Source: Spirochaetota bacterium
GTDB lineage: Bacteria > Spirochaetota > UBA6919 > CBDBPB01
NCBI GenBank assembly: GCA_965208615.1
Contig: CBDBPB010000007.1
Coordinates: 256,001-320,000, forward strand
DNA length: 64,000 nt
Direction: 5' to 3'
Of the stretch, positions 29,915 through 46,680 are shown piece after piece. Positions within the stretch are counted from its first letter, which is position 1. Each line of letters starts with the position of its first letter. A program made the translations under genes and the position numbers. The notes beneath the pieces were generated by a model that was not told the DNA's origin, did not search any database, and saw nothing but the letters and a program-made list of their open reading frames with translations.

Positions 29915-30247
29915 ATGCCATTAGAAGTTAGTGGAAAAGCTGTGGATATTGATGAAGACGGATTTTTAACTAATGTTGATGACTGGAATGAGGATATAGC
30001 GGCTGTTTTGGCAAAGACTGAGCAAATTGAGATGACTGATTCACATTGGGAAGTTATACACTTTTTGAGAGAGTATTATGAAGAATATAAGATTGCTCCC
30101 ATGATAAGGATACTTACTAAAGCTATTGGGAAAAAGTTAGGGAAAGAAAAGGGTAATACTAAATATCTTTATTCTCTTTATCCTGGTGGTCCTGCTAAGC
30201 AGGCCTGTAAGATTGCTGGTCTTCCAAAGCCTACTGGATGTGTTTAG
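29915..30247 (+). CDS. dsrC: Sulfur carrier DsrC with both C-terminal cysteines
   Basis: DEDGFL, C-x10-C tail ACKIAGLPKPTGCV; contains KKLGKEKGNTKYLY insert; ATG 29915 after GGAGG. Confidence 0.97.
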   Translation: MPLEVSGKAVDIDEDGFLTNVDDWNEDIAAVLAKTEQIEMTDSHWEVIHFLREYYEEYKIAPMIRILTKAIGKKLGKEKGNTKYLYSLYPGGPAKQACKIAGLPKPTGCV

Positions 30248-30268
30248 GCTTGATTTATAATATATCTT

Positions 30269-30310
30269 AAGTGGCAAGGGTTATCCTAAACGCCACTTTA
30301 TCTTTATTTT
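30269..30310 (+). terminator. Stem-loop after dsrC
   Basis: AAGTGGC...GCCACTT followed by a T-rich tract. Confidence 0.6.
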
Positions 30311-30444
30311 TTATAAAGGTCATACTTTTTAAGCTACTATATATGTTATCCTTTTCTTTTATATATTTGTGATAATATAACTTTATTTATTTTACATATA
30401 AATAAGATTTGGGATATAGTTATTAGAGTGAGCTAAGGTTTATA

Positions 30445-31002
30445 ATGGGAGAAAGCGAGTTTATTTCTTATCTTATAAATAAAAAATCTGTTATTGTTCA
30501 GAAATGGCTAGACGGAATTGTAGATTGTTATTCTCCTACTACGGCTAGTTTTATGAAGGCTAAGAAAGATCCTTTTCTTAATCCGGTTGGTCATGCCTTA
30601 TCCTCCCTTATAGATGGTATTTTTAGTTATCTTACCAATAGATGTTCCTACGGTGATATTAAGCCTGTTTTAGTTGATGCAATAAAAATACTTGTGGTTC
30701 AGGATATGCCTTCTTCTCGTGGTTTAGGATTTATAAATATGGTTAAGAAGGTTGTTAGGGCTGAGCTTAAAAAGGAAATTAAAAAAGAGAACCTTTTTTC
30801 TGAGCTATTAGTTTTTGAATCAAAGGTTGATGAGGTCTTGCTAAAGGCTGTGGATATTTATATTGCTAATATAGCCAAGCTTTATGAGATTAAAGCCAAT
30901 GATATAAAAAATAGAACTTTTAAGTTATTACGAATGGCAAATCTGGAAGATGAAGCTCGGAGCTTAATGATGGACTCTACTTGTAAAAGTGGGCAGTTAT
31001 AA
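30445..31002 (+). CDS. dsrT: DsrT (RsbRD N-terminal-like)
   Basis: W...I...Y......F....KDPFLNPVG, IKI.VVQD, KLYEIKAN; directly upstream of dsrM. Confidence 0.9.
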   Translation: MGESEFISYLINKKSVIVQKWLDGIVDCYSPTTASFMKAKKDPFLNPVGHALSSLIDGIFSYLTNRCSYGDIKPVLVDAIKILVVQDMPSSRGLGFINMVKKVVRAELKKEIKKENLFSELLVFESKVDEVLLKAVDIYIANIAKLYEIKANDIKNRTFKLLRMANLEDEARSLMMDSTCKSGQL

Positions 31003-31024
31003 ATTACGATAATAGGTGGGTTCA

Positions 31025-32032
31025 ATGAAGAAAATATTAATTTCTTTAGGTATTGTTGTAGTTCTTGCGTTTATACCGTATATAGGTATATTGGCGTCTG
31101 GTTCTTTAAAGTTTTTATTTGGAGTTTTTATACCTCTTGTAGCTGTGATTGTATTTTTAGTTGGAGTTATTCGTAGGGTGGTTATATGGGGTCGTTCTGC
31201 TGTTCCTTTTAGGATACCTACTACTTGCGGTCAACAGGAATCTCTTTCGTGGATAAAGCAAAACAAGATAGATAATCCTTCATCTGGTTTTTGGGTAATG
31301 GTGAGGATGTTTTTTGAGGTATTTTTATTTCGTTCTCTTTTCAGGAACACTAAAGCTGAGCTAAGGGATGGTGGTAAAAGATTATCTTATGGTGAATCTA
31401 AGTGGCTTTGGATTATGTCTTTAGTTTTCCATTTTAGTTTATTTGTTGTTATAATAAGGCATTTACGTTTTTTTCTTGAGCCTGTACCTTTCTTTGTAAA
31501 TGCAGCAAGCTATGTAGACTCTGTACTACAAATAGGCATGCCTATTCTTTATTTATCTGGGGTTGCTTTGTTAGGCACGGTGAGCTTTTTATTTTTGAGA
31601 AGGGTTGTACTACCTAAAATCAGGTATATTTCTTTAACCATAGACTATTTTCCATTATTATTGATTTTATTTATAGTATGTACTGGACTATTAATGAGGT
31701 ATTTTACTAAGGTAGATATTCTATCTATTAAAGAGCTTGTCATTAATGTTATGACTTTTAGTTTTAGTGTTAGTGTTTTTAAGGGGATTGATACACTTTT
31801 TTTTGTTCATATTTTTTTAGTTAGCATACTAATTGCATATTTTCCTTTTAGTCAGTTAATGCATGGTATAGGTATATTTTTTAGTCCTACAAGGAATATG
31901 GCGAATAATAACCGTAAGAAAAGGCATATTAATCCGTGGAATTATCCTGTTAAACTCCACACTTATGAGCAATATGAAGATGATTTTAGGGAAACTATGA
32001 AAAAGGCTGGACTTCCAGTGGAAAAGGAGTAA
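31025..32032 (+). CDS. dsrM: DsrM, membrane cytochrome b
   Basis: VPFRIPTTCGQQ.SL.W, FRSLFRNT, heme-ligating His (FH, RH, VH, MH), SPTRN. Confidence 0.96.
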   Translation: MKKILISLGIVVVLAFIPYIGILASGSLKFLFGVFIPLVAVIVFLVGVIRRVVIWGRSAVPFRIPTTCGQQESLSWIKQNKIDNPSSGFWVMVRMFFEVFLFRSLFRNTKAELRDGGKRLSYGESKWLWIMSLVFHFSLFVVIIRHLRFFLEPVPFFVNAASYVDSVLQIGMPILYLSGVALLGTVSFLFLRRVVLPKIRYISLTIDYFPLLLILFIVCTGLLMRYFTKVDILSIKELVINVMTFSFSVSVFKGIDTLFFVHIFLVSILIAYFPFSQLMHGIGIFFSPTRNMANNNRKKRHINPWNYPVKLHTYEQYEDDFRETMKKAGLPVEKE

Positions 32033-32035
32033 TAT

Positions 32036-33658
32036 ATGTCAAAACTACCTAAGCCGGATGAGTTATCTAATGTAGATTATACCCTACCTAAGACTGAGTG
32101 GATAAATACTCCAACTGAGCTTAAGGAAACTATGATTTGTTATGGTGCTAAGGAAGATAAGCTAAAAGCCGTTGACTTTCCAAATGCAAGAAGTTGGGAT
32201 CCTAAATTGGATGACTGGAAGCTCCCTGATAATTGGAAGGAGATTATATTAGAGGGTATTAGTGAGCGTTTGGAGAAGTACAGGTCATTTAGGCTATTTA
32301 TGGATATATGTGTACGTTGTGGTGCTTGTGCGGATAAGTGTCATTTTTTTATTGGTACTGGCGATCCTAAGAATATGCCTGTTTTACGTGCTGAGCTTTT
32401 GAGATCGGTTTATAGAAGAGATTTTACTACTGCGGGTAAGGTTTTTGGTTCATTAGTTGGTGCAAGGGATCTTACTATTGATGTACTAAAGGAATGGTGG
32501 TATTATTTCTTTCAGTGTACTGAATGCCGTCGTTGTTCTGTATTTTGTCCTTATGGCATTGATCAGGCTGAGATTACTATTATAGGTAGGGAGCTTTTAA
32601 ATTTATTAGGTCTTAACACTGACTGGATCGCTGGTCCTGTAGCTAATTGTTATAAAAAGGGTAATCATATTGGTCTTGAGCCTAAGGTTATTGTTGATAC
32701 CATAAAGTTTTTGTGTGAGGATATTGAAGAGATTACTGGTATTAAGATTGAGCCTCCTATTAACAAAAAAGGTGCTGATATATTATTTGTTGCTCCATCG
32801 GGTGATCTTTTTGCTGAACCCGGTATTTATACCTGTATGGGCTATCTTATGCTATTCCATGAGCTTGGTTTGAATTATACATGGAGTACTTATGCGTCTG
32901 AGGGTGGTAACTTTGGTTTTTTTACTAGTAATGAGATGGCAAAGAGATTAAATGCTAAAATATATGCTGAGGCTAAGAGATTAGGGGTAAAATGGATTAT
33001 AGGCGGTGAATGTGGACATATGTGGCGTGTTATTCATCAATATATGAATACATGGAATGGTCCTGCTGATTTTTTAGAAGAGCCTGTTTCTCCTGTAACG
33101 GGTACTAAGTTTACAAATAGTACTTCTACTAAGATGGTTCATATTGCCGAGTTTACTGCTGATCTTATTAAAAACGGTAAGATTAAGTTAGACCCTAGTA
33201 GGAATGATCATTTAGCTATTACTTTTCATGATTCATGTAATACAGCTCGGGCATTAGGTATGTTTGAGGAGCCACGTTATATTATTAATAATATTTCTAA
33301 TAGCTTTTATGATATGCCTGAAAATACTATTAAAGAAGTAACTTTTTGTTGTGGTAGTGGTGCAGGGTTAAACGCTTCTGAGAACATGGAGCTTAGAATG
33401 AAAGGTGGTTTTCCAAGGGCTAATGCGGTTAAGTATGTTGCAAATAAATATGGGGTTAATATGCTTGCCAATATTTGTGCTGTAGACAGGGTTACATTAC
33501 CTCCTCTAATGGATTATTGGGTTCCTGATGTAGGGGTAGCGGGATTACATGAACTTATTGGAAATGCTCTTGTTATGACTGGTGAAACTGAAAGAGAAAC
33601 TGATTTAAGGGGTGAACCGTTACCAGATAATGATCACAAGGAGAAAGAAGATGTATGA
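32036..33658 (+). CDS. dsrK: DsrK, HdrD-like Fe-S catalytic subunit
   Basis: CVRCGACADKC, CTECRRCSVFCP, GECGH, FHDSC, FCCGSG. Confidence 0.97.
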   Translation: MSKLPKPDELSNVDYTLPKTEWINTPTELKETMICYGAKEDKLKAVDFPNARSWDPKLDDWKLPDNWKEIILEGISERLEKYRSFRLFMDICVRCGACADKCHFFIGTGDPKNMPVLRAELLRSVYRRDFTTAGKVFGSLVGARDLTIDVLKEWWYYFFQCTECRRCSVFCPYGIDQAEITIIGRELLNLLGLNTDWIAGPVANCYKKGNHIGLEPKVIVDTIKFLCEDIEEITGIKIEPPINKKGADILFVAPSGDLFAEPGIYTCMGYLMLFHELGLNYTWSTYASEGGNFGFFTSNEMAKRLNAKIYAEAKRLGVKWIIGGECGHMWRVIHQYMNTWNGPADFLEEPVSPVTGTKFTNSTSTKMVHIAEFTADLIKNGKIKLDPSRNDHLAITFHDSCNTARALGMFEEPRYIINNISNSFYDMPENTIKEVTFCCGSGAGLNASENMELRMKGGFPRANAVKYVANKYGVNMLANICAVDRVTLPPLMDYWVPDVGVAGLHELIGNALVMTGETERETDLRGEPLPDNDHKEKEDV

Positions 33659-34088
33659 TAGGTCTAAAATTATTATTGGTATAGTTATATTTTTAGGGGT
33701 TATTGCTTTTCCTTTTTATTATAACAATGTTTTAGGAAAGAGTTCTGATGTTAAGGCTAAGGGTAAAAGTAATGTTTTAGCTGGAAAAAAGGATGTGGAT
33801 GCCTTACACTTTCATATTGGAGGCGAGAAAAAACAAAGAACCCTTAAGGATATGAGAGCTAATCACATGAAGATATTGGATAGCTGGCGAAATGAAGTTG
33901 TTAGAGATGGTATTCGTAAGCCTGGAAGGAGCTTACAAAATGGATGTCTTAGTTGTCATGCTAAAGAGAAAAAGAATGCTATGAAAATTGGGGATAAGGA
34001 GGCTACTGCTTGTGAAGACTGCCATGTTAAGACTGGAACGCAGTTGTACTGCTGGGAATGCCATTTTGATCCGAAGGAGAGTAAGTAA
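33651..34088 (+). CDS. dsrJ: DsrJ, triheme cytochrome c
   Basis: N-terminal TM anchor, MRANHM, three CxxCH (CLSCH, CEDCH, CWECH). Confidence 0.92.
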   Translation: MYDRSKIIIGIVIFLGVIAFPFYYNNVLGKSSDVKAKGKSNVLAGKKDVDALHFHIGGEKKQRTLKDMRANHMKILDSWRNEVVRDGIRKPGRSLQNGCLSCHAKEKKNAMKIGDKEATACEDCHVKTGTQLYCWECHFDPKESK

Positions 34089-34939
34089 TGGATAAAAATG
34101 ATAATAAAACTGAGGTTCAATCTATTGAAGAGAAAATTGGCAGAAGACAGTTTATAAAGATAGCTGGTATATCTACTTTATTTGGAGCTGCTGGTATATC
34201 TGCCTTACAGATTCTTAAGCCTGGCTCACTGGATGCTTTTCATACATATACTAATAAAATACAATGGGCTATGGTGGTTGATATTAGAAAGTTTAATTCT
34301 GATGAAGACTTTAAAATTCTTATTGACGCTTGTCATATAAATCATAATGTACCTCTTATACCTAATAATGAGGATGGTTCTGAGAATAAGGACGTGGTAA
34401 AGTGGATTTGGAGGGATAGTTATGAGCATGTTTTTGTAGAAAGTGGTCATCGTTTTTTATCCAATAGAGTTAGTAATAAGAATGTTTTAGCATTATGCAA
34501 TCATTGTACTGAACCACCATGTATTAGGGTATGCCCTACTAATGCTACTTTTAAGAGGGTTAATGATGGGATTGTTATGATGGATCAGCATAGGTGTATT
34601 GGTTGTAGGTTTTGTATGGCGGCTTGTCCTTATGGAGCAAGGAGTTTTAATTTTAGGGATCCAAAACCTTATATTAAAATGCGTAATCCTTCTTATCCTG
34701 CTCGTAGTAGGGGAGTTGTTGAGAAGTGTACTTTTTGTGCTGATATCATTCATATTGAGGATACTAAGCCTTATTGCGTAGAAGCATGTGATAGTAAAGA
34801 GGAACTTAAAGGTGGTCTTACTTTTGGCAACGTTAATGATAAAAATTCTAAGGTTAGACAGCTTCTTAAAGAGTACTATACGGTAGTTCGTAGGCCTGAA
34901 ATTGGTACTAAACCAAATGTGTATTATATAATATCCTAA
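34088..34939 (+). CDS. dsrO: DsrO, Tat-exported Fe-S protein
   Basis: GRRQFIK Tat motif, ACH..HNVP, CNHC..PPC..VCP, CIGCRFCMAACP, EKCTFC. Confidence 0.94.
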   Translation: MDKNDNKTEVQSIEEKIGRRQFIKIAGISTLFGAAGISALQILKPGSLDAFHTYTNKIQWAMVVDIRKFNSDEDFKILIDACHINHNVPLIPNNEDGSENKDVVKWIWRDSYEHVFVESGHRFLSNRVSNKNVLALCNHCTEPPCIRVCPTNATFKRVNDGIVMMDQHRCIGCRFCMAACPYGARSFNFRDPKPYIKMRNPSYPARSRGVVEKCTFCADIIHIEDTKPYCVEACDSKEELKGGLTFGNVNDKNSKVRQLLKEYYTVVRRPEIGTKPNVYYIIS

Positions 34940-34952
34940 GGAGTAATTGGTC

Positions 34953-36104
34953 ATGTTGGAAAAAGTGATTTCTGGAAGTCGGATATATTGGGGCTGGATT
35001 TTATTTTTATTAGTGGTAATAGCTATTGGTTCTGCCGCTTATGCTTATCAGTTTATTAATGGACTTACTGTTACTAATATGGGCAGGGATGTTTCATGGG
35101 GATTATATATAGGTCAGTTTACTTTTTTTGTAGGGGTTGCGGCCTCGGCTGTTATGTTGGTTATTCCATATTATTTACATAATGCAAAGGTATTTGGTAG
35201 GTTGGTTATATTTGGAGAGTTTTTAGCTATACCTGCGGTTATAATGTGCCTATTATTTGTTATTGCTGATATGGGAAAGCCTATGAGGATGCTAAACGTT
35301 GTTATTTACATGAGGACTAATTCTATATTATTTTGGGATTTTTTAGCATTAAATGGATATTTACTCTTAAACATTATTATTGGTTGGTTTGCTTTAGGAG
35401 CAGAGAGAAAGGGTATTAGTTATCCAAAGTTTGTTAGGCCGCTAATATATTTATCAGTTCCGGTGGCATTTAGCATTCACACGGTAACAGCTTTTATTTA
35501 TGCTGGTTTACCTGTTAGGCATTTATGGCTTACAGCTATTATGGCGGCAAGGTTTTTGGCATCTGCATTTGCGGCTGGACCTGCACTTTTAGTTTTACTT
35601 CTTTTTATAACACAAAAGCTTAGCAAGTGTGATTTAAAGTTAGAGCCTATTAAGGCTATGGGTAAGATTGTTACTTATGCTATGATTGCTAATGTATTTT
35701 TTTTAGGATTAGAGTTATTTACGGCTTTTTATAGTGGTATTGAGTCTCATCAGCATCCATTTGAGTATTTATATGTTCACGCTAGTTTAATTTCGCCTCT
35801 TATGTGGGTTTCGGCCGTATTGGGGCTTGGATCTTTGGTATTATTAATTACGCCATCTTTTAATAGTAACTTTAATTTAGTTAGAATAGCATGTTTAATG
35901 GTTTTTATATCCCTGTGGATAGATAAAGGTTTTGGATTAGTAATAGGTGGGTTTAATCCTAGTCCTGCGGGTAAGTTTGTTGATTATTGGCCTACATTAG
36001 TTGAGGTTTTAGTTAGTCTTGGTATTTGGGGAATTGGTGCATTGGTGTTGACTATTTTGTATAAGGTGATTTTATCTGTGAGAAAAGAGATTAGAGGGTT
36101 TTAA
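34953..36104 (+). CDS. dsrP: DsrP, NrfD/PsrC-family membrane protein
   Basis: GL.VT.M.RDVSWGLYI, FFVGVAASAV, DMGKP.R, SIHTVTAF, FLASAF. Confidence 0.95.
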   Translation: MLEKVISGSRIYWGWILFLLVVIAIGSAAYAYQFINGLTVTNMGRDVSWGLYIGQFTFFVGVAASAVMLVIPYYLHNAKVFGRLVIFGEFLAIPAVIMCLLFVIADMGKPMRMLNVVIYMRTNSILFWDFLALNGYLLLNIIIGWFALGAERKGISYPKFVRPLIYLSVPVAFSIHTVTAFIYAGLPVRHLWLTAIMAARFLASAFAAGPALLVLLLFITQKLSKCDLKLEPIKAMGKIVTYAMIANVFFLGLELFTAFYSGIESHQHPFEYLYVHASLISPLMWVSAVLGLGSLVLLITPSFNSNFNLVRIACLMVFISLWIDKGFGLVIGGFNPSPAGKFVDYWPTLVEVLVSLGIWGIGALVLTILYKVILSVRKEIRGF

Positions 36105-37494
36105 GTTTTTAATTTTGATTAAGTGCTATTCAAAAGTATAGGCTGTTTTATTGTATTATTTAAAGTTAGTCTAGTTATAGATTAGGCTATTTTATGATAG
36201 ATTTTAGTGGGTATTATTGTAAAAGGTTTTTAAGTTTTTAAGTTTTTAATTTTGATTAAGTGCTATTCAAAAGTATAGGACGTTTTATTGTATTATTTAA
36301 AGTTAGTCTAGTTATAGATTAGGCTATTTTATGATAGATTTTAGTGGGTATTATTGTAAAAGGGTTTATAGTTTTTAATTTTGATTAAGTGCTATTCAAA
36401 AGTATAGGACGTTTTATTGTATTATTTAAAGTTAGTCTAGTTATAGATTAGGCTATTTTATGATAGATTTTAGTGGGTATTATTGTAAAAGGTTTTTAAG
36501 TTTTTAAGTTTTTAATTTTGATTAAGTGCTATTCAAAAGTATAGGACGTTTTATTGTATTATTTAAAGTTAGTCTAGTTATAGATTAGGCTATTTTATGA
36601 TAGATTTTAGTGGGTATTATTGTAAAAGGGTTTATAGTTTTTAAGTTTTTAATTTTGATTAAGTGCTATTCAAAAGTATAGGACGTTTTATTGTATTATT
36701 TAAAGTTAGTCTAGTTATAGATTAGGCTATTTTATGATAGATTTTAGTGGGTATTATTGTAAAAGGGTTTATAGTTTTTAATTTTGATTAAGTGCTATTC
36801 AAAAGTATAGGCTGTTTTATTGTATTATTTAAAGTTAGTCTAGTTATAGATTAGGCTATTTTATGATAGATTTTAGTGGGTATTATTGTAAAAGGTTTTT
36901 AAGTTTTTAAGTTTTTAATTTTGATTAAGTGCTATTCAAAAGTATAGGACGTTTTATTGTATTATTTAAAGTTAGTCTAGTTATAGATTAGGCTATTTTA
37001 TGATAGATTTTAGTGGGTATTATTGTAAAAGGGTTTATAGTTTTTAATTTTGATTAAGTGCTATTCAAAAGTATAGGACGTTTTATTGTATTATTTAAAG
37101 TTAGTCTAGTTATAGATTAGGCTATTTTATGATAGATTTTAGTGGGTATTATTGTAAAAGGTTTTTAAGTTTTTAAGTTTTTAATTTTGATTAAGTGCTA
37201 TTCAAAAGTATAGGACGTTTTATTGTATTATTTAAAGTTAGTCTAGTTATAGATTAGGCTATTTTATGATAGATTTTAGTGGGTATTATTGTAAAAGGGT
37301 TTATAGTTTTTAATTTTGATTAAGTGCTATTCAAAAGTATAGGCTGTTTTATTGTATTATTTAAAGTTAGTCTAGTTATAGATTAGGCTATTTTATGATA
37401 GATTTTAGTGGGTATTATTGTAAAAGGTTTTTAAGTTTTTAAGTTTTTAATTTTGATTAAGTGCTATTCAAAAGTATAGGCTGTTTTATTGTAT
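36095..37494. repeat. Non-coding tandem array, 10 full units plus a partial 11th, unit length 129 or 137 bp
   Basis: AAGTGCTATTCAAAAGTATAGG recurs at 36121, 36258, 36387, 36524, 36661, 36790, 36927, 37056, 37193, 37322 and 37459; the length difference is one 8-bp GTTTTTAA module. Confidence 0.97.
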
Positions 37495-38186
37495 AGGTAA
37501 ATATATTAAGATGACGTTTTATGATAATTTAGTTATGACTTTATAACAAGGTATAGAACGTAAAACGCAAGACATATAACGTAAAGGCAAGTGAATTTTA
37601 GATTTCTTTATGGAACAGGAAAGTTAAGATATTCATGAAAAAGTTATATTCTTGTTCTACAGGGCTAAACTTTCTATGCTCTTTAAGTACTGTTTAAATG
37701 CCTTAGCAATGAACACAAAATATCACTTTTTATGCAAGTAGTCATCACTACGAGAGCTATTAAGAATCCCTTACTGAGACTAAGAATTATACACCTTTAT
37801 TAAGTGATAACGGATTTGCCTTTCCATAAAGGGATAGAGCGGATTCTTTAAATATTATATATTGACGTTATGTGTAAAGCTTAGGCGAATTAACTATAAT
37901 TCTTTATATGTTAAAACACTTAAACTAACTAATATAAAAACTAATCCACTAAGAACCTCTTTACAACAGCATAACTAAAACACTCCATAACAAATAGCTA
38001 TTCCCCATCTTGCGAACTCTAAAACCATTTAATAATCCTTTGCAATAGATTTTAAATACGTTTCTGCTTGACTTTTCATAGAAATTTATTATATTATAAC
38101 AGCTTTATTTTTAAATGATATAGCTATATAGATGCCGATCACTTGTAGACTGTCATATTAAGCTAAAATGTATAATAGGGGGAATT

Positions 38187-39236
38187 ATGAAAAAAATATT
38201 TTTTATATTACTATCTCTATCTCTATTAATAGGATGCGAACAGGATAGTGTTAGTAAACTTGCTATGGATAATGGTGGAGGCACTGGTGGTACTGGTGGT
38301 ACTGGTGGTACTGGTGGTACTGGTGGAGGCTCTGGTGGAGGTACTGGTGGAAATGGTGGAAATGGTGGAAATAATGATGGAGGTACTGGTAACTCTACTG
38401 GTAAAGTTTTTGTAAAACTAGGTGTTAGTAATGGAAATGGAAGATCTTGGTCTACTGCTTATAGTGATTTACAAAAAGCTATTGAGGAAGCTCATAAAGA
38501 ATCAAAAGCAACCGGAAAAACGGTTAAAGTCTATGTAGCCGCTGGAACCTATACTCCATCAGGTTGGCCTAATAAAGGTGGAGTTGTTACTAATAAGGGT
38601 AAACACTTTTCTTTGCGTAATAATGTAGAGGTATACGGTGGTTATCCTCGATCTGGTGGTAACTATAGTAACTATAGGGTTAATAAGACTATTTTAAGTG
38701 GTGATCTTGGTGGAGAGAAGGTATACCACGTTTTTTATCATCCAAATGGAGTGATAAATACTACAGCAAAGCTACAAGGAGTTACCATTACTAATGGTTA
38801 TAATGAAGGTCAATATGGGGGAGGCATGCATAATGGTAGAGGCTCCAGCATAACATTACTAGACTGTACTTTTAAGGATAATACTGCACATTATGGTGGT
38901 GGAATGTATAATGGTCCTGATTCTAATGTAAAATTAGAAAACTGTATCTTTAAAAATAATACAGCTCTTAATGGTAATGGAGGCGGAATACATAATGGTG
39001 ATGGTTCTAGGGTAGAATTGAAAAACTGCACCTTTGAAAATAACACTGCTAGATATTATGGTGGTGGAGTATATATTAGCTATGGTACTACTACTACGTT
39101 TACAGGCTGTACCATTAAAAGTAATACTGCTCACTATGGTGGTGGTGGAATATATAGTTTTAATTCCGAACTAAATTATGTAAACAAAGGTAATACAATT
39201 GAAGATAATGACCCTGACAATGTAAAGTCTTTATAA
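38187..39236 (+). CDS. Lipoprotein with Gly/Thr/Asn linker and right-handed beta-helix (PMP-like) repeats
   Basis: Lipobox LLIGC; (GGT)n linker; G.SW..AY.DLQ.AI, V.VAAGTY.P; repeated GGGMxNG..S...L.NC.F.NNTA units. Confidence 0.85.
   Translation: MKKIFFILLSLSLLIGCEQDSVSKLAMDNGGGTGGTGGTGGTGGTGGGSGGGTGGNGGNGGNNDGGTGNSTGKVFVKLGVSNGNGRSWSTAYSDLQKAIEEAHKESKATGKTVKVYVAAGTYTPSGWPNKGGVVTNKGKHFSLRNNVEVYGGYPRSGGNYSNYRVNKTILSGDLGGEKVYHVFYHPNGVINTTAKLQGVTITNGYNEGQYGGGMHNGRGSSITLLDCTFKDNTAHYGGGMYNGPDSNVKLENCIFKNNTALNGNGGGIHNGDGSRVELKNCTFENNTARYYGGGVYISYGTTTTFTGCTIKSNTAHYGGGGIYSFNSELNYVNKGNTIEDNDPDNVKSL
38274..38390 (+). repeat. In-frame 9-bp microsatellite encoding a GGT/GGN linker
   Basis: (ACTGGTGGT)x4 at 38283-38318 plus (AATGGTGGA) copies. 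Confidence 0.9.
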
Positions 39237-39282: not shown

Positions 39283-39307
39283 TTAACCCCCTTTTTAAGG
39301 GGGCTAA
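39283..39307. terminator. Stem-loop after the lipoprotein gene
   Basis: TTAACCCCCTT-TTT-AAGGGGGCTAA. Confidence 0.65.
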
Positions 39308-39495: not shown

Positions 39496-39527
39496 TAAGG
39501 AACTTTCTTTAAAAGCCATTTGTTATA
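39496..39527 (+). promoter_or_regulatory. dsr upstream motif, copy 2 (ECF-like GGAAC-N18-GTTA; overlaps an extended -10 TGTTATAAT)
   Basis: TAAGGAACTTTCTTTAAAAGCCATTTGTTATA. Confidence 0.65.
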
Positions 39528-39600
39528 ATATATAATCTTATAGATATCTTTTTAATGCTAATTATTATAGTTAGATAGAAACTTATTGTTAGGAGGAATA

Positions 39601-39957: not shown

Positions 39958-39975
39958 CATATAAAAGGAGATTTT

Positions 39976-40386
39976 ATGAGCGGAAAGAAGTTTATGTTTG
40001 TTATGAGAAAGGCTCCTCATGGTACTATTTACTCTTATGAGGGTTTAGAGGTTGTATTAATTACTGCAAGTTATGATCAGGACATATCCATGGCATTTAT
40101 TGATGATGGTGTTTTTGCACTTAAAAAGGGCCAGGATACTAGTGGGATTGGTATAAAGGGTTTTTTACCTACTTATGATGTTCTTGGGGATTATGATGTA
40201 CATAAGCTCTATGTAGATGTTGATTCAATGAATGACAGGGGGCTTACTAAGGATGATCTTGTTGATCTTGTTTATGAGGACGATGAAGATGAGGATAATC
40301 CAAAAGAAATTAAGCTTATTCAGTTTTTGAGCCGCAAAGAGATTATGGCTAAGATGAGTGAGCAGGATGTTTTACTACCTTATTAG
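39976..40386 (+). CDS. dsrF: DsrF
   Basis: RKAPHGTIYSYEGLEVVLI..SYDQD, F.DDGV..LKKGQ; acidic insert EDDEDED. Confidence 0.94.
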   Translation: MSGKKFMFVMRKAPHGTIYSYEGLEVVLITASYDQDISMAFIDDGVFALKKGQDTSGIGIKGFLPTYDVLGDYDVHKLYVDVDSMNDRGLTKDDLVDLVYEDDEDEDNPKEIKLIQFLSRKEIMAKMSEQDVLLPY

Positions 40387-40413
40387 AACTGCTAATTAAA
40401 AGGAGGATTGGTT

Positions 40414-40707
40414 TTGTTACATACAATTAATAAGTCACCTTATACAAATACCAGTTTAGAGAGTTGTTTAGGCTTTATAAATGAGGGGGATAGTGTATTA
40501 CTTTATGAGGATGGTGTGCTTGGTGCTCAGGCTGGTAGTAGTGTTGAGCCTATATTAAAGGATTTTAGTAAAAAGTGTAAGATTTATGTTTTATCTGAGG
40601 ACTTAAAAGCTAGGGGTATATCTAATACTTTGGATTTTGTAGAGTTGACCGACTACTCAGGTTTTGTAGACTTAGTTGAAAAGGATAAGATTCTTGCGTG
40701 GCTCTAA
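40414..40707 (+). CDS. dsrH: DsrH
   Basis: MLHTINKSP, LESCL, LLYEDGV, DLKARG, DYSGFVDL; TTG start 7 nt after AGGAGG. Confidence 0.94.
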   Translation: MLHTINKSPYTNTSLESCLGFINEGDSVLLYEDGVLGAQAGSSVEPILKDFSKKCKIYVLSEDLKARGISNTLDFVELTDYSGFVDLVEKDKILAWL

Positions 40708-41396
40708 GTAAAGAAGGTATAAATAAAAGTAAGTTACGGTTTTTATTGTTAGAAAACAATATTGAGGCGATAAAAGAACTTTCTTTTGTAAATGGAAACG
40801 CTCTAATAAAAATACTTTCTAGGCTATTGTATGATAGGGATTATCTGGTAAGATGGAGGGTGGTAAGTGCTTTTGGTGAGCTAAGTGTTATTAGTCCTGA
40901 TTTAGTTAGGCGGACTGTTAGTCGTTTGGCATGGACTCTTAATGATGAGGCTGGATGTAGGAATTGGGGTGCTCCTGTTGTATTAGCTGAGATTGGTTAT
41001 CATGACTTATCCCTTGTGGATGAGGTTATAAGGATAGTTCTTCATTATATTGATGATCCCGAAACGTCATTACCTCCAAATCGTAATGTGGATATTGTAG
41101 TGGGAGTGCTTTGGTCTATTGCTAGATTTGCTAAAAGCCATCCTAACATAGCCAAAGAGGTTGTTGGACTGGTTATACCCTTTTTAGCTGATGAGAATAG
41201 TAATATTAGAGGTCATGCACTGTGGGCATTAGAGTCCCTTAGCCAATTTATAAAGGCAAGTGATAATAAGGATATTTTAAACATTCTTTTGCTTTTGAAA
41301 AAAGATTGTACTAAATTTAATCTCTATTTAGATAGACAGATTATTTCTTTAGAGATAAATAAATTAGCTATTAATATTTTAGCAAAGTTAAAATAA
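40698..41396 (+). CDS. HEAT-repeat protein (DVU0298-like)
   Basis: LYD.D.LVRWR, RL.WTLNDEAG...WGAP, FLADEN..IRG.A.WAL; overlaps dsrH by 10 nt. Confidence 0.7.
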   Translation: MALSKEGINKSKLRFLLLENNIEAIKELSFVNGNALIKILSRLLYDRDYLVRWRVVSAFGELSVISPDLVRRTVSRLAWTLNDEAGCRNWGAPVVLAEIGYHDLSLVDEVIRIVLHYIDDPETSLPPNRNVDIVVGVLWSIARFAKSHPNIAKEVVGLVIPFLADENSNIRGHALWALESLSQFIKASDNKDILNILLLLKKDCTKFNLYLDRQIISLEINKLAINILAKLK

Positions 41397-41419
41397 CTAT
41401 TTTAAGGAGAAGTGATAAT

Positions 41420-42628
41420 ATGGCAGATGATTTAAAAACACCGCTTTTAGATGAGTTATTAGATGGGCGATGGCCTAGCTTTGTCAAGGATCTTAAAAGT
41501 GTTTCTGATAAGCAACCTATGGTAAAAGATTTATTGGGTCAGCTTGAATTATCCTATAGTGATAATGTTGGGCATTGGAAGCATGGTGGACTTGTTGGAG
41601 TCATGGGTTATGGTTCTGGTGTTATTGGCAGGTATTCTGATGTACCTGATAAATTCCCTAATGTAGCTCATTTTCACACTTTAAGGATTAATCAACCATC
41701 GGGGTGGTTTTATACTACTGAGGCTCTTACTAAGCTGTGTGATATTTGGGATAAATATGGTTCTGGTATGACAAACATGCACGGGACTACTGGTGACGTT
41801 ATTTTTCTTGGAACTAAAACTGAGCATTTAGAAAACTGTTTTACTGAGTTAACAGAAAATGGATGGGACTTAGGTGGTTCTGGTTCTGCTACAAGAACTC
41901 CATCTTGTTGTGTGGGACCTGCTAAGTGTCAGTTTTCTTTATTTGATACATTAAATGTTACTTATGAGTTAACACAGAACTATCAAGATGAGATTCACAG
42001 ACCTGTATGGCCATATAAGTTTAAATTTAAGTTTTCTGGTTGTCCTAATGATTGCGTTGCCGCTGCTGCACGGTCTGACCTTACTGTTATTGGTACATGG
42101 AGAGATAGTATCCGCATTGACCAAGCTGAGGTGGCTAATTATATAGATGGCGGGATGGATGTTGTTAGTGATGTACTTATGCTTTGTCCTACAAAATGTA
42201 TTACTCTAAAGGGCAAGGAAATGATCATTGATAATTCTGATTGTGTTAAGTGTATGCATTGTTTAAATGTAATGCCAAAGGCTCTTAGACCTGGTACTGA
42301 TACTGGGGCATCTATATTGGTAGGGGCTAAGGCTCCAATTGTAGAGGGTGCATTATTGTCATCTATGATAATACCTTTTATGAAGATTGAGCCGCCTTAT
42401 GAGGAGCTTATTGACTTAATTGACAAAATACAAGAGTTTTGGGAAGAACATGGTATGAATAGAGAGCGTATTGGGGAGTTTATTCAAAGAATTGGTCTTG
42501 GTAGCTTCCTTGAGGAAATTGGGGTTGAGCCTATACCAGAGCAGATTACAGCTCCAAGGGACAATCCATATATATTTTATGAGGAGTATTTTGAAGAGGG
42601 TGATGAAGACGAAGAAGATGAAGAATAA
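41420..42628 (+). CDS. dsrA: Dissimilatory sulfite reductase alpha subunit, reductive-type signature
   Basis: TPLLDEL..G.WPSFV, HWKHGG, FHTLR.NQP, RTPSCCVGPAKC, KFSGCPNDC, CVKCMHCLN; acidic C-terminal tail. Confidence 0.98.
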   Translation: MADDLKTPLLDELLDGRWPSFVKDLKSVSDKQPMVKDLLGQLELSYSDNVGHWKHGGLVGVMGYGSGVIGRYSDVPDKFPNVAHFHTLRINQPSGWFYTTEALTKLCDIWDKYGSGMTNMHGTTGDVIFLGTKTEHLENCFTELTENGWDLGGSGSATRTPSCCVGPAKCQFSLFDTLNVTYELTQNYQDEIHRPVWPYKFKFKFSGCPNDCVAAAARSDLTVIGTWRDSIRIDQAEVANYIDGGMDVVSDVLMLCPTKCITLKGKEMIIDNSDCVKCMHCLNVMPKALRPGTDTGASILVGAKAPIVEGALLSSMIIPFMKIEPPYEELIDLIDKIQEFWEEHGMNRERIGEFIQRIGLGSFLEEIGVEPIPEQITAPRDNPYIFYEEYFEEGDEDEEDEE

Positions 42629-42751
42629 TATATTTTAGTTTTTAATTTATGATGTTAATAATGATTTACAATATAAATCTATTTTATGGTAGATAAAAAG
42701 TTATTTACTATAAGCTAAAAATTATACTAACTGATTTAGGAGGAATAGATT

Positions 42752-43828
42752 ATGGCTATGCCAAAAAGAGAAACTGATATAGGACCACCAAGTTATGAGA
42801 AGTTTCTTCATCCTGTTATAAAGAATAATTATGGTAAGTGGAAGTATCATGAGATTTTAAAGCCTGGAGTTTTAGTACACGTTGCTGAAAATGGCGACTC
42901 TATCTATACAGTAAGGGTTGGCTCACCTAGGCTAATAACTACTGATAAGATTCGTAAGCTTTGTCAGACTGCTAATAAATATTGTGATGGGTATTTAAGG
43001 TTTACCAGTAGAAGTAATGTTGAGTTTATGACTGATAAAAAAGAGAATATAGACCTTATAATAAAGGATGCTAGTTCTTATGATTTTCCAGCTGGTGGAA
43101 CTGGTAATTCTGTGTCTAGTATTGTACATACTCAAGGTTGGGTACATTGTCATACTGCGGCTACAGATGCCTCTGGGGTTGTCAAGTCTGTTATGGATGA
43201 GATTTATGACTATTTTGTTACTATGACCTTGCCTCACAGGGTAAAAATAGCTCTTGCATGTTGTTTAAATATGTGTGGAGCTGTTCATTGTTCTGATATA
43301 GCTATTCTTGGTATACACAGACGCCCTCCTACTATTAATCATGGGGATTTAAAGAACAAATGTGAAATACCTACTACTGTAGCATCATGTCCTACTGCGG
43401 CTATTAGGCCTACATCTGTGGATGGCAAGCCTTCTGTAGAGGTAATTGAGGAAAAGTGTATGTATTGTGGTAATTGTTATACAACTTGTCCGTCTATGCC
43501 TATTGCTAACTCGCTTAATGATGGAGTATCAATTTGGGTTGGTGGAAAGGTCTCTAATGCAAGGTCTGCACCTAAGTTTTCTAAGTTAGCTGTTGCATAT
43601 ATTGAAAATGAGCCTCCAAGGTGGCCTGGGGTATCTGCGGCTGTTAAAAAGATTATTGAGGTTTATGCTGAGAATGCCAGAAATTGGGAGCGTATTGGTG
43701 AGTGGATAGAGCGAGTTGGTTGGTCTAAGTTTTTCAAACTAACTGGATTTGAGTTTACAAAATATCATATTGATGATTTTAAAGGACCTATTAGGAGTTA
43801 TAATAACTCGACTCACGTTAGATTTTAG
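42752..43828 (+). CDS. dsrB: Dissimilatory sulfite reductase beta subunit
   Basis: [52 protein letters not shown]. Confidence 0.98.
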
Positions 43829-43839
43829 TTGGAGGTGTT

Positions 43840-44082
43840 ATGAGTGTTTCTATTGAACAGATAGCTGATGATATGTATAAGCTTGTGTCTGACGCTGCTG
43901 GAAAGAAAAAGTTAAAGCCTGGCGATTTAACCAAGTCTATTATTAAGCAGTACGGTGATCAGGTATCAAAAAAGGATTGCAAAGCTGCTCTTAAGACCCT
44001 TATTGACGGCGGAAAGTGTATATATGGTTATTTTGGTGGTAGTTCGGTAGAGCTTCCACGAAAAGAAGGGGCTGAGAATTAG
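43840..44082 (+). CDS. dsrD: DsrD-like small winged-helix protein (divergent type)
   Basis: 80 aa directly after dsrB; basic GKKKLKPGDL, KKDCKAALKTLIDGG, YGYFGGS wing; GGAGG RBS. Confidence 0.75.
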   Translation: MSVSIEQIADDMYKLVSDAAGKKKLKPGDLTKSIIKQYGDQVSKKDCKAALKTLIDGGKCIYGYFGGSSVELPRKEGAEN

Positions 44083-44092
44083 TTTATTAATT

Positions 44093-44120
44093 AGGCATCC
44101 TTTTTATTGGGTGCCTTTTT
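44093..44120 (+). terminator. Intrinsic terminator between dsrD and dsrL
   Basis: AGGCATCC-TTTTTATT-GGGTGCCT-TTTT. Confidence 0.75.
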
Positions 44121-44315
44121 AATATGTTATATTAGTTTTTATTGTTTTGTTTAGACTGTGGTTTATTTGTATATTATTTACTGAGCAATTATTTAATAAT
44201 AGTATTAAGGTATTTTGAATGGCTTAGGGTCAAAGTTTGGATATTATAAATAGATTAAATTTTAAAAGGCGATTTACGTCAATTTTAAATAGACAATACT
44301 AAGTTAGGAGGATAA

Positions 44316-45995
44316 ATGGCTATTAAGAAAAAGAAAAAGGTAGCTAAGAAAGCTAAAAGGAGTTTTGCTGCATCGGGTGCAGGGTCTACTCAGGTCTCTA
44401 GTTTAAGACCAAAGTATACTAAGAAAATACCACCGTGTAATGTTGCTTGTCCTAGTAGTGAGACAATTAGGAGTTATTTAACTACTGTTGCACAGAAGGA
44501 TGAGTATGGGCTAACCTTAGATCAGGCTACTAAAGATGCTTGGCATATTTTAACTGCTAAAAACCCATTTCCTTCAGTTTGTGGTAGGGTATGTCCTCAT
44601 CCTTGTGAGACTGGTTGTAATAGGGCTCAATTTGACACACCAGTGGCTATTAACAATGTTGAGCGTTATATTGGTGATTTTGGAATTAAAAACAATTTAG
44701 AATATACAAAGCCTAATGAAAAGTATTCAGAGAAGGTAGCTGTTATTGGCTCTGGTCCTGGTGGTATGAGTTGTGCCTATCAGTTGGCTAAAATGGGATA
44801 TTCTGTAACTGTGTTTGAGCAGTTTGCTGAGTCTGGGGGTATGCTTAGGTATGGGATACCGTCATATAGGTTGCCTCGGGATGTTTTGGATGCTGAGGTT
44901 CAAAAGATAGTTGATCTTGGTGTAGAGATGCGGTATAACACTAAGATTGGTAAGGATATAAGTATAGATGAGCTTAAGAAAGAGTATAAGGCATTTTTTC
45001 TTGGTATTGGTGCTCATGTTGGCTATGAGTTAGGCGTAGAGGGTGAGGATGCCCCTAATGTATACTCTGGTGCAGACTTTTTAAATAGGTTTAATGCTGG
45101 GGAGACCATTGAGGTTGGTGATAAGGTTTTGATAGTGGGAGGTGGTGATAGTGCCATTGACTGTGCCAGAACTTGTAGGCGGCTAGGTGCTGATGTTAGT
45201 ATTGTTTATCGGCGTGGTAAGGCTGAAATGCCTGCTATAGCTCATGAGATAGATGAGGCTGAGAAAGAAGGTGTTAAGCTTGAACTTTTGACTGCTCCTA
45301 TTTCTTTTGTTAAAGAGGGTGATAAAGCTACTGGTATGAATTGTTTACGTATGGAGCTTGGTGAGCCTGACTCATCTGGTCGTAGACGTCCTGTACCTAT
45401 TAAGGGGTCTGAGTTTGTTATTGAGGCTAGTACTGTTATTGCGGCTATTAGTCAGGAGCCTGATTTTACTGGATTTGAGCAGTTTAAGCATGGAAAAGAT
45501 TGGGTTAGGGTTAATGATCAGCGTATGACTAATGTGGATAGTGTTTTTGCTGGGGGTGATGTTATTGAGTTAATGTTAGTTACCACTGCTATTGGTCATG
45601 GTAGAATGGCGGCTGAGAACATTCATCATTATATTAGGGGTACTAAACCATCAGATGATAATAAGATGGAGGTTGTAAGCTATGATAAGCTTAATACCCG
45701 CTACTATAGTGAAAAACCACGTCATGAATATAATAGTATATCTTTAGAAGATAGGCTGGGTACTTTTAATGAGGTTAACTTTACTCTAAGTCCTGATGAG
45801 TTTTTAGAAGAGACTAAGCGATGTTTTAGTTGTGGAATGTGTTTTGACTGCGATAACTGTTGGAGTTATTGTCAGGATGGGGTTATTGAGAAGTTGCCTA
45901 AGGGTCAGCACTACGATTTTTATAAGATGGAGCAGTGTATTGGTTGTAAGAAGTGTGCTGAAGAGTGTCCATGCGGCTATATTGATATGATATAG
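44316..45995 (+). CDS. dsrL: DsrL iron-sulfur flavoprotein, DsrL-2 (YRR, NADP(H)) type
   Basis: PPC..ACP, VCGRVCPHPCE..CNR, GSGPGG, GGGDSA with IVYRR, RCFSCGMCFDCDNC and CIGCKKCAEECPCG. Confidence 0.92.
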   Translation: MAIKKKKKVAKKAKRSFAASGAGSTQVSSLRPKYTKKIPPCNVACPSSETIRSYLTTVAQKDEYGLTLDQATKDAWHILTAKNPFPSVCGRVCPHPCETGCNRAQFDTPVAINNVERYIGDFGIKNNLEYTKPNEKYSEKVAVIGSGPGGMSCAYQLAKMGYSVTVFEQFAESGGMLRYGIPSYRLPRDVLDAEVQKIVDLGVEMRYNTKIGKDISIDELKKEYKAFFLGIGAHVGYELGVEGEDAPNVYSGADFLNRFNAGETIEVGDKVLIVGGGDSAIDCARTCRRLGADVSIVYRRGKAEMPAIAHEIDEAEKEGVKLELLTAPISFVKEGDKATGMNCLRMELGEPDSSGRRRPVPIKGSEFVIEASTVIAAISQEPDFTGFEQFKHGKDWVRVNDQRMTNVDSVFAGGDVIELMLVTTAIGHGRMAAENIHHYIRGTKPSDDNKMEVVSYDKLNTRYYSEKPRHEYNSISLEDRLGTFNEVNFTLSPDEFLEETKRCFSCGMCFDCDNCWSYCQDGVIEKLPKGQHYDFYKMEQCIGCKKCAEECPCGYIDMI

Positions 45996-46022
45996 CTTTT
46001 AAGGTATTATTTTTATAAGATT

Positions 46023-46088
46023 AAATAGGTCTTTTAGTTTTTGTTTATGGTTTATAACTTTTTAAACATTAGCTAATAAGGCCTATTT
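46023..46088. terminator. Long imperfect hairpin after dsrL
   Basis: AAATAGGTCTT...TGTTTA...TAAACA...AAGGCCTATTT. Confidence 0.5.
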
Positions 46089-46250
46089 TATTATGCTTTT
46101 TTTATGTTTTTTAAAAAAGAATTTGGTTAAGACATAAATTATTATCATATTTAATATGTTATATTTTAGGATTTAATAACTTTTTTAATAAGTAGTAGAA
46201 AGTATATTATATTTTAGCTATCTTTGTAGAGGTTTTTAAGGGTTGTAGTG

Positions 46251-46430
46251 ATGAAAAGTGCTAAAAAGAAGGTTCTTAAGAAAAAAGTACGAAAAATAGG
46301 CGTTACTACTCAGTGTTGTGAGAATTATTGTAGGGATTGTAGGAATATTTTACTTAAGGGTACTAATGAGATACCCAATATTGCTTATCGGAACCCTGAA
46401 AGACCAGGCTATAAAGATTTTGAAAGCTAA
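46251..46430 (+). CDS. Small Lys-rich, Cys-rich hypothetical protein
   Basis: MKSAKKKVLKKKVRK leader then CCENYCRDC; same strand as the dsr genes. Confidence 0.65.
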   Translation: MKSAKKKVLKKKVRKIGVTTQCCENYCRDCRNILLKGTNEIPNIAYRNPERPGYKDFES

Positions 46431-46443
46431 TTAGGAGTTTTAT

Positions 46444-46680
46444 ATGGCAGATAGTTGCTTATATTATAAACCAATTGTTAATCAGACTGATAAACAAGAT
46501 AGTTTTGCTTTAAAGATGTCTTTTTTAAGTGGAGATGGCCTTTGCCCTGTGTGCAAGCGAGAAGGAAAAGAGGTAAAGATTGAAGAGCGTCTTGGGGATA
46601 CTACTTGTGAGAGGGATGGTACTTATGCTGTTTGTATAGACAATAACGGCGTTATGAAGCATGGCACATCTCTTGACTGA
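46444..46680 (+). CDS. Small Cys-rich hypothetical protein (possible metal binding)
   Basis: AGGAG RBS; five Cys including CPVC. Confidence 0.7.
   Translation: MADSCLYYKPIVNQTDKQDSFALKMSFLSGDGLCPVCKREGKEVKIEERLGDTTCERDGTYAVCIDNNGVMKHGTSLD

Follow-up and report, generated by a model that had tools for sequence, protein, structure and literature searches.

A dissimilatory sulfur (dsr) locus lies on the plus strand of the window, the 64,000-nt stretch of DNA analyzed here (G000:C7:256001-320000), within a 480-kb contig of a genome that we place among the spirochaetes. Genes were identified by open reading frame (ORF) calling and Pfam/NCBIfam scans, and scores are given in bits with the curated cut-off in brackets. 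The gene order is dsrC-T-MKJOP, a spacer filled with repeats and containing a lipoprotein gene, and finally dsrEFH-HEAT-dsrAB-dsrD-dsrL with two small ORFs. An earlier note on this DNA had described this order and had read it as reductive and oxidative markers side by side in one locus. The genes that it named are all at their places on the plus strand, and the mixture of markers is borne out. All Dsr proteins score above their curated cut-offs except DsrJ; the 80-aa ORF behind dsrB is treated apart.

The first module opens with dsrC (29903..30247; TIGR03342, 167 bits (53.5)) and a dsrT-like gene (30445..31002; RsbRD_N, 24.7 bits (24.3)), homologs of which (26-41% identity) stand between dsrC and dsrM in many loci. 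The genes for the membrane complex follow. Four of the products match NCBIfam equivalogs, namely DsrM (31016-32032; 492 bits (300)), DsrK (32036-33658; 736 bits (400)), DsrO (34088-34939; 260 bits (200)), and DsrP (34947-36104; 442 bits (350)). DsrJ (33612-34088) reaches 76 bits, under its cut-off of 100, and has three CxxCH motifs, so all five DsrMKJOP subunits are represented. The second module starts with dsrE (39586-39957; 113.7 bits (89.25)), dsrF (39976-40386; 109.5 bits (94.15)), and dsrH (40408-40707; 90.0 bits (49.2)), which were recognized with the TIGR03012/TIGR03010/TIGR03011 set. It continues through the HEAT-repeat gene to dsrA (41420-42628; TIGR02064, 549.7 bits (392.85)), dsrB (42752-43828; TIGR02066, 498.6 bits (341.5)), and the 80-aa ORF (43840..44082), which begins 11 nt past dsrB. 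The genes from dsrE to this ORF overlap or are separated by gaps of at most 123 nt. The dsrL gene (44316..45995; PRK12771, 644 bits (516)) comes next. The genome holds a single copy of dsrAB.

Types of the Dsr proteins

The type of DsrAB was assigned by phylogeny and motifs. A maximum-likelihood tree (LG+G4) of concatenated DsrA and DsrB comprised 43 rows, hand-picked from 84 loci with complete pairs with thinning of the Nitrospirota and supplemented with 10 oxidative references. L239 was left out as its dsrB is cut off, and the tree stands without an archaeal root, early-branching DsrAB, and Desulfurella. A split with 100/100 support and a length of 0.54 separates 13 oxidative rows from the 30 others. 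Four of the 13 come from cultured oxidizers and five from spirochaete genomes, and the set includes Allochromatium warmingii, Thiorhodococcus minor, Thioalkalivibrio denitrificans, Chlorobium phaeovibrioides, Magnetococcus, and an Acidiferrobacteraceae metagenome-assembled genome (MAG). On the non-oxidative side, the window DsrAB branches off first, and the other 29 rows are supported at 93/98. Closest to it are one MAG each of the Nitrospirae and Nitrospinota (L004 and L006) and MAGs of the Actinomycetota/Thermoleophilia; the identity to L004 over DsrA and DsrB is 69%. A grouping with oxidative rDsrAB, for which the earlier note had proposed a tree as a check, was not found, and the window protein lies outside that clade with different motifs. 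The motifs were inspected in 23 of the 43 aligned rows (13 non-oxidative and 10 oxidative). DsrA reads RTPSCC in the window and in 10 other non-oxidative rows, and RTPSGC or RTPTGC in two spirochaete reductive rows. HCH(S/T) is present in 13/13 non-oxidative rows, with HCHT in the window DsrB, and RTxxSC together with HCDIP is present in 10/10 oxidative rows. The motifs on which the earlier note had relied thus separate the two types in the rows inspected. By tree and motifs, we assign the window DsrAB to the reductive bacterial type. A 'transitional' label for it would rest solely on its position beside the oxidative clade.

The 80-aa ORF had been taken for DsrD in the earlier note. No Pfam DsrD (PF08679) match was obtained even at E <= 10, and none in NCBIfam. 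Homologs detected by blastp (36-68% identity) lie directly after dsrB in 67 of the 93 loci screened, all 67 belonging to the 80 nearest DsrA loci. Pfam DsrD is touched by 6 of 23 aligned homologs with a best E of 5.9e-5; the window ORF is not among the six. A hidden Markov model of the family picks out the post-dsrB ORF of the Thermosulfurimonas dismutans locus, a clear Pfam DsrD (109.5 bits), and hhalign of the 23-row family against this DsrD gave a probability of 94.5% and E 7.4e-8 over 67 columns. The AlphaFold model of the ORF is a winged helix with three helices and a hairpin (pLDDT 87.8). Foldseek against the PDB returned generic winged-helix matches for this model, none at E <= 0.001 and the solved DsrD not among the matches listed, and a PDB profile search returned generic winged helix-turn-helix regulators and not the solved DsrD. 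The identification stands on synteny and on hhalign against a Pfam-verified DsrD, not on a direct Pfam match. These data indirectly support the ORF as a divergent DsrD.

DsrL has the domain order Fer4_20 (residues 38-126), Pyr_redox_2 (140-429), and C-terminal Fer4 (508-558). DsrL-2 is described by an N-terminal ferredoxin, FAD and NAD(P) domains, a linker, and a C-terminal ferredoxin (PMC7596348). A YRR motif at residues 298-300 lies in the NAD(P) site. YRR occurs in 12 of 21 aligned DsrL rows and is absent from 9/9 that stand beside rDsrAB, and these nine form a single clade in the DsrL tree (support 100). Motif and tree agree with the earlier note in assigning the window DsrL to the YRR (DsrL-2) type, which is read as NADP(H)-using (PMC7596348). 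The genome also encodes a DsrL/NfnB-like paralog of 576 aa (G000:C1:314172-315902) that has YRR and is 34% identical to the window DsrL.

The C-terminal arm of DsrC (...QACKIAGLPKPTGCV) has the two conserved cysteines that distinguish functional DsrC from TusE/RspA. The earlier note had regarded its 7-8 residue insert as typical of oxidizers. The insert is present, but it is no marker of oxidizers because the alignment shows it in Thermodesulfovibrio-type DsrC encoded beside dsrD as well. Cysteines of DsrE and DsrH, which we take from work on A. vinosum to be the active residues, are conserved in all nine aligned rows, three of them from cultured oxidizers. The window DsrEFH is assigned to the canonical type I and is predicted to be a sulfur transferase to DsrC, and the E, F, and H sequences combined have their highest identity (66%) to a genome of the same order (G005). 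TusBCD for tRNA thiolation was considered and is ruled out by the place beside dsrAB and by the lack of a second TusE/DsrC. No paralogs of DsrK, DsrM, DsrC, or DsrE were found in the genome by tblastn. DsrK is 72-77% identical to Nitrospirota sequences of the Thermodesulfovibrionia type, compared to 60-65% for other spirochaetes and 43-47% for the same-order kin. An 11-residue insert was seen in DsrE of three gammaproteobacterial oxidizers (L317, L318, L306) and is missing in spirochaete, Actinomycetota, and Nitrospinota DsrE (window, L223, L224, L019, L233, L238).

The host genome and its same-order kin

Nine contigs make up the 2.46-Mb genome, for which completeness is 99.4% and contamination 0.5%; the GC content is ~0.31-0.32 on every contig. 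FlaA, the sheath protein of the periplasmic flagellum, gave 8 matches compared to none in 14 control genomes, and one of these lies on the same contig as the locus, 17 kb beyond the window. PNPase identity falls from 69-70% for two genomes of the same order (G005 and G035) to 56-61% within the class and 53% for one genome of the same phylum, and the nearest named matches are Leptospirales and Spirochaetales MAGs (55% and 52%). A contig of G035 is identical to a record labeled Spirochaetia. By FlaA and PNPase kinship, we identify the host as a spirochaete, as the earlier note had suspected. The species set compared has no other member of its family.

The earlier note was correct that sat, apr, qmo, and sox are missing from the window, but all are present elsewhere in the genome. 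The genome encodes AprA (987 bits), AprB (227 bits), Sat (398 bits), and QmoABC (QmoC 423 bits). SoxXYZAB are all over their cut-offs (X 70.7 (61), Y 132.3 (125), Z 81.7 (76), A 212.8 (110), B 727.7 (550)). No soxC match was found in this 99.4% complete genome; soxD was not searched for. An SQR-like gene of type III lies directly downstream of a tusA gene, and the genome has three more tusA genes. Candidates for terminal electron transfer are ccoNO of a cbb3 oxidase, slightly below the equivalog cut-offs, and napA (1410 bits). A NiFe hydrogenase and two PhsA/PsrA-like molybdoenzymes were also found. The gene set is that of a predicted lithotroph able to oxidize reduced sulfur with O2 or nitrate, and H2 could also be used. 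Neither the RuBisCO large subunit nor cytochrome bd was found in the genome.

Three further loci in the genome were recorded. The qmoABC genes are followed within 3.2 kb by arsenite oxidase aioBA (G000:C2:83385-94097; AioA 1207 bits, AioB 176 bits), and arsenite is a possible additional donor of electrons. At G000:C7:182466-185946, an intact AclB-like gene (Citrate_bind and ATP-grasp, 422 aa) is followed by a CoA-binding ORF of just 240 aa and then short frames. No citrate-synthase domain was found at this locus, which could be a broken ATP-citrate lyase (ACL), a citryl-CoA synthetase, or the product of assembly errors. A second haem-copper-oxidase-like protein of 543 aa (G000:C4:75846-77477) has an odd order, with a CcoN C-terminal piece at 25-182 and a CtaD-like part at 203-518.

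The distribution of dsr genes was surveyed in a phylum sample of 401 genomes. DsrA is encoded in 25 of them, the host included, and spirochaete DsrAB falls into three unrelated lineages: a reductive clade (families f25, f32, f42, f49), the oxidative type, and that of the window. Like other Leptospirales and Spirochaetia MAGs, G005 and G035 have the oxidative type, and the DsrAB of these two genomes falls within the oxidative clade, together with that of Chlorobium, Magnetococcus, and Allochromatium. SoxB was detected in only 3 of the 401 genomes, and so was DsrE over its cut-off; in both cases the three are the host, G005, and G035. The order is therefore probably a sulfur-oxidizer lineage. 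The host shares soxYZAB, dsrEFH, dsrC, and aprA with these two relatives. They differ from it in having oxidative-type DsrAB, a DsrL without YRR, and the order dsrC-MK-EFH-JOP, which in G005 is on one contig with rdsrAB-dsrL on another; dsrD was not found in their dsrAB loci.

The identities to G005 and G035 divide the pathway into two parts. PNPase (69-70%) was the housekeeping baseline. AprA (79-80%), DsrE (68-73%), DsrF (58-62%), and DsrH (54-55%) are near or over this baseline, whereas DsrB (50-51%), DsrA (46-49%), DsrK (43-47%), DsrL (40%), and DsrP (24%) are far under it. The values for DsrC, SoxB, and DsrM are 71-76%, 53-54%, and 32-36%. The window DsrAB, DsrD, and DsrL are 51-70% identical to those of 'mixed' MAGs (L004, L006, L018, L019), and a metagenome contig from elsewhere (L326, GC 0.37) carries dsrABD at 78-80% identity to the window. 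The sulfur-relay and Apr parts look common to host and kin, and the catalytic core and membrane complex are, judged by these comparisons, xenologs from at least one other source. GC at third codon positions (GC3) of the dsr genes is 0.22-0.35 compared to 0.251 ± 0.038 for the genome, and the nearest foreign dsrA genes have a GC of 0.42-0.58. The host-like GC3 indicates that the genes are long resident, that any transfer is old, and that they are not contamination. The unlike DsrAB/D/L and T-MKJOP of host and kin suggest that modules were exchanged by lateral transfer in one or the other lineage. From this we infer that Sox, DsrEFH, and AprBA were retained while the catalytic and membrane modules were swapped, with the host's line as the presumed recipient.

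Spacer, repeats, and neighboring genes

The stretch between dsrP and the lipoprotein gene is 2.1 kb and non-coding. Its first part is a tandem array of a 137-bp unit (36099..37494; Tandem Repeats Finder, 10.4 copies, 93% matches), and all 11 blastn matches of the unit in the genome are at the locus itself. The units are AT-rich, and the minus strand of each has a promoter-like pair of hexamers. A collapsed read-contig of the array has ~12 times the flanking depth, suggesting ~12 copies. A CRISPR array is ruled out, since the units are contiguous and near-identical and have no spacers. Rfam gave no match over 29000-47500 at E <= 0.01, the array included. One copy of a dispersed repeat of ~350-450 bp follows (37517..37995; blastn). 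The 68 blastn matches to two spacer queries are 76-92% identical and, among those listed, fall on at least four contigs; the repeat looks like a miniature inverted-repeat transposable element (MITE) or a repetitive extragenic palindromic (REP) element.

The lipoprotein gene (38187..39236, plus strand; Beta_helix, 44 bits) is not a dsr gene. Its beta-helix family has tblastn matches at ~20 further places on six contigs (C1, C2, C3, C4, C7, C8), several near contig ends. The protein has a Gly-rich N-terminal tract and is the most variable stretch between two samples; the family may consist of variable surface proteins. Between dsrH and dsrA lies the HEAT-repeat protein of the DVU0298 family (40698..41396, plus strand; NF045662, 115 bits (75)). 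It is a conserved dsr neighbor, and weak homologs (22-33% identity) stand between dsrD and dsrC in numerous dsr loci of the Nitrospirota. A terminator-like hairpin directly 3' of dsrD (44093..44116, plus strand) comes from a consensus scan and is weak by itself, since the scan found 6 terminator-like sites compared to 7.2 expected in shuffles. Two small Cys-rich ORFs of 60 aa (46248-46430) and 78 aa (46444-46680) follow dsrL on the plus strand and have no family match in the Pfam/NCBIfam scans. A 53% identical homolog of the 78-aa ORF lies just upstream of dsrE in a Nitrospirae MAG (L237:804-1022), and this ORF may encode an unnamed small dsr-associated protein.

Proposed direction of sulfur flow and rival readings

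We think it probable on balance that this lithotrophic spirochaete has a genuine Dsr system, present once and with markers of both kinds, that serves sulfur oxidation and perhaps works reversibly. The most likely organism is a sulfur oxidizer with its Dsr core swapped for a reductive-type one. SoxXYZAB without SoxCD and the SQR-like enzyme would convert thiosulfate and sulfide to zero-valent sulfur, which TusA-type carriers and DsrEFH would load onto DsrC. DsrAB would oxidize the DsrC-bound sulfur to sulfite and pass electrons to DsrL-2, with NADP+ as acceptor, and to DsrMKJOP, which would reduce quinone. AprBA with QmoABC and then Sat would take sulfite to sulfate, and cbb3 oxidase or NapA would be the electron sink. 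Where oxidants are lacking, this set of genes may work in the opposite direction and reduce sulfate or sulfite, because DsrD, reducer-type DsrMKJOP, QmoABC, and the NiFe hydrogenase are also present. We favor oxidation because dsrEFH is intact and packed directly before dsrAB, because Sox comes without SoxCD and tblastn found no Hdr-like alternative, and because the nearest kin have the same scheme with rDsrAB. The earlier note had held the direction to be open. It is less open than that, since Sox, the SQR-like enzyme, Apr, Sat, Qmo, cbb3, Nap, and the rDsr kin point to oxidation or reversibility over plain sulfate reduction.

Several points weigh against oxidation by this route. DsrD is described as an activator of sulfite reduction (PMC8794893), and in the accounts given by two papers (PMC13293266, PMC8794893), oxidation by a reductive-type DsrAB is not demonstrated at the enzyme level. 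DsrT, QmoABC, and DsrMKJOP of the reducer type would be just as much at home in a reducer, and Sat, AprBA, and Qmo are bidirectional. The NiFe hydrogenase and the two PhsA/PsrA-like enzymes would suit H2-driven reduction of sulfur compounds. Kinship is equivocal for some of the parts that look retained. DsrC is as close to some Nitrospirota and Nitrospinota sequences (72-77%) as to the same-order kin, so its origin is not assignable from identities. A grouping of the window with G005 and G035 is not resolved in the DsrEFH tree, though the window lies outside two well-supported foreign clades there, and DsrE alone is 68-72% identical to Aquicultor-type Actinomycetota, as close as to the kin. 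We hold only tentatively, as possible and somewhat short of probable, that oxidative rDsrAB, DsrL-1, and DsrMK/JOP were displaced within one order by laterally acquired reductive DsrAB-DsrD-DsrL-2 and DsrT-MKJOP, with Sox, DsrEFH, DsrC, AprBA, Sat, and Qmo kept.

The mixture could have arisen in assembly or binning if the dsrEFH-dsrAB piece or the whole locus were foreign and joined through repeats. Reads from two runs of one study contain the stretch. Read-contigs with 0 differences to the window cover 29500-36128, 38297-44070, and 44052-47500 onward. They leave two joins unbridged, the zone at 36128-38297 with the array, the dispersed repeat, and the paralogous lipoprotein gene, and a 19-nt overlap at 44052-44070, and the depth is low at ~4-5x in one run and 2x in the other. 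The chimeric join against which the earlier note had cautioned is nevertheless not seen where it matters most, for a single 5.8-kb read-contig carries dsrEFH, the reductive dsrAB, and the start of dsrD. The three pieces have similar depths (4.7, 3.9, and 4.9), and the second sample covers both modules at depth 2. GC3 matches the host, the spacer is built of host-specific repeats, the dsrA-B-D-L order is that of the nearest relatives, completeness and contamination are those of a clean genome with a single dsrAB, and flaA is on the same 480-kb contig. An artifact is very improbable in the light of these data. The choice between biological readings is closer. Dsr could be purely reductive, with sulfate, sulfite, or thiosulfate respired with H2 or organic donors, as is thought for other dsr-bearing spirochaetes. 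Sox and SQR would then serve detoxification or a separate Dsr-free oxidation to sulfate or sulfur, and DsrEFH would be a leftover or have another role. Reductive-type DsrAB, DsrD, DsrT-MKJOP, YRR-type DsrL, complete sat, aprBA, and qmoABC, and the NiFe hydrogenase all agree with this, and dsrD and dsrL-2 beside reductive dsrAB are taken as a reductive indicator in the gene scheme of Diao et al. (PMC10591310).

We regard a purely reductive Dsr as unlikely all the same. A leftover dsrEFH sits poorly with retained active cysteines and tight packing before dsrAB. In known oxidizers without SoxCD, the leftover sulfur needs Dsr or Hdr for further oxidation, and here soxC was not found (soxD was not searched for) and tblastn alone gave no DsrK or DsrM paralog as an sHdr alternative. 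The nearest kin are rDsr oxidizers with the same Sox, DsrEFH, and Apr set, and the genome encodes cbb3 and Nap. In disproportionation, whether of elemental sulfur, thiosulfate, or sulfite, DsrAB with DsrD would run in the reductive direction and Apr with Sat in the oxidative one, DsrEFH feeding in sulfur. Cultured disproportionators have the same gene classes, the Thermosulfurimonas dismutans locus being dsrAB with DsrD, and two PhsA/PsrA-like enzymes are in the genome; DsrL-2 itself was characterized from Desulfurella amilsii (PMC7596348). We rate this reading as more doubtful still, since disproportionators have no need of Sox, cbb3, and Nap, and the printed result for type II dsrEFH is that it does not correlate with disproportionation (PMC13293266). 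Sulfur oxidation with a reductive-type core, possibly reversible, remains the reading that we prefer.

Mixed repertoires of this kind have precedents. Klier et al. 2024 describe a 'group two' or 'transitionary' repertoire with dsrA, B, C, D, E, and L together, and in the part of that work on these sets the sole holders of all six markers are SAR324, Nitrospirota, Nitrospinota, Actinomycetota, and CG2-30-53-67, with Spirochaetota placed among the lineages that lost dsrD (PMC11406059). The window genome has the same six markers, and in our 43-row tree its DsrAB adjoins the oxidative clade, so that it qualifies as 'transitionary' in this sense. The sequences nearest to its DsrAB (66-70%) are encoded in dsrAB-D-L loci of Nitrospirae, Nitrospinota, Actinomycetota, and Thermoleophilia; one of these loci (L019) also has dsrEFH. 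It differs from group two in its phylum and in the presence of Sox, cbb3, and Nap. Its DsrMKJOP is of the Thermodesulfovibrionia kind (DsrK 72-77%), unlike that of the nearest DsrAB loci (DsrK 43-45%).

Sulfide oxidizers with reductive-type DsrAB have also been described, namely Desulfurivibrio alkaliphilus and the cable bacteria (PMC13293266). They resemble the window genome in combining this DsrAB with sat, apr, and qmo, and DsrEFH is proposed there as the enabling part. Their DsrEFH is of type II and linked to yeeE and tusA (PMC13293266), whereas that of the window is of type I beside dsrAB. Plum-Jensen et al. 2026 report reductive dsrAB in just 2.4% of the genomes with type I dsrEFH (PMC13293266). 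Canonical rDsr loci were compared using Allochromatium warmingii (L317), Thioalkalivibrio denitrificans (L318), and Chlorobium phaeovibrioides (L265). DsrEFH (43-57%) and DsrC (53-67%) are similar, and DsrL is present; DsrA and DsrB are just 46-51% identical, the motifs differ, and the window DsrL is of the YRR type. No dsrD or dsrT match was found within the 7-kb stretches of these three loci. The overall scheme of the purple and green sulfur bacteria is truncated Sox with Apr and Sat, as in the window genome. We know of no Sox or DsrL in Desulfurivibrio or the cable bacteria.

Spirochaetes are not classical dissimilatory sulfur organisms, as the earlier note had said, but Dsr of both types is already in print for Spirochaetota (PMC10591310, PMC12687941, PMC10494364). 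Putative sulfate-reducing members have been reported (PMC10494364, PMC10591310). The Spirochaetota MAGs covered by Diao et al. 2023 have either an oxidative set or a reductive one, in which dsrD is accompanied by dsrL-2 or dsrL is missing, and reductive DsrAB with DsrEFH is noted there only in Aquicultor and one SAR324 family (PMC10591310). A 2025 estuary study reports rdsrAB, dsrEFH, sat, aprAB, and qmoABC from Leptospirae MAGs, which in its account have no dsrD (PMC12687941). The reductive families f25, f32, f42, and f49 share with the window the phylum, reductive-type DsrAB, a nearby dsrC, dsrMKJOP in most loci, and DsrD-like ORFs in 4 of 8 loci. They differ in forming a separate DsrAB clade (100/100) at 56-61% identity and in a DsrC without the insert; no dsrL was found in their loci, and neither DsrE nor SoxB in these families in the 401-genome sample. 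Our literature search surfaced no paper on a spirochaete combining dsrD, dsrEFH, and Sox; supplementary tables, which it did not cover, may list one.

Surveys assign organisms to one half of the sulfur cycle from DsrAB type, dsrD, dsrEFH, and dsrL, and mixed sets are the open problem of that scheme (PMC10591310, PMC11406059, PMC7596348). Mixed sets and dsr-bearing spirochaete MAGs are already published; the most useful feature here is the contrast within one order. It provides a built-in comparison in which sister lineages share Sox, DsrEFH, and Apr and differ in the DsrAB, DsrD, DsrL, and DsrMKJOP core. The genome adds Spirochaetota to the phyla with all six 'transition' markers and bears on the origin of rDsr. 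The host is a spirochaete with genes for the donors reduced sulfur, H2, and arsenite and the acceptors O2 and nitrate, and it is naturally suited to testing whether oxidation can be supported by a DsrAB of the reductive type together with DsrD. If the displacement is real, a reductive-type DsrAB with its activator DsrD would run sulfur oxidation in vivo, or one operon would work in both directions, and the direction in which the pathway runs would not follow from the 'type' of DsrAB.

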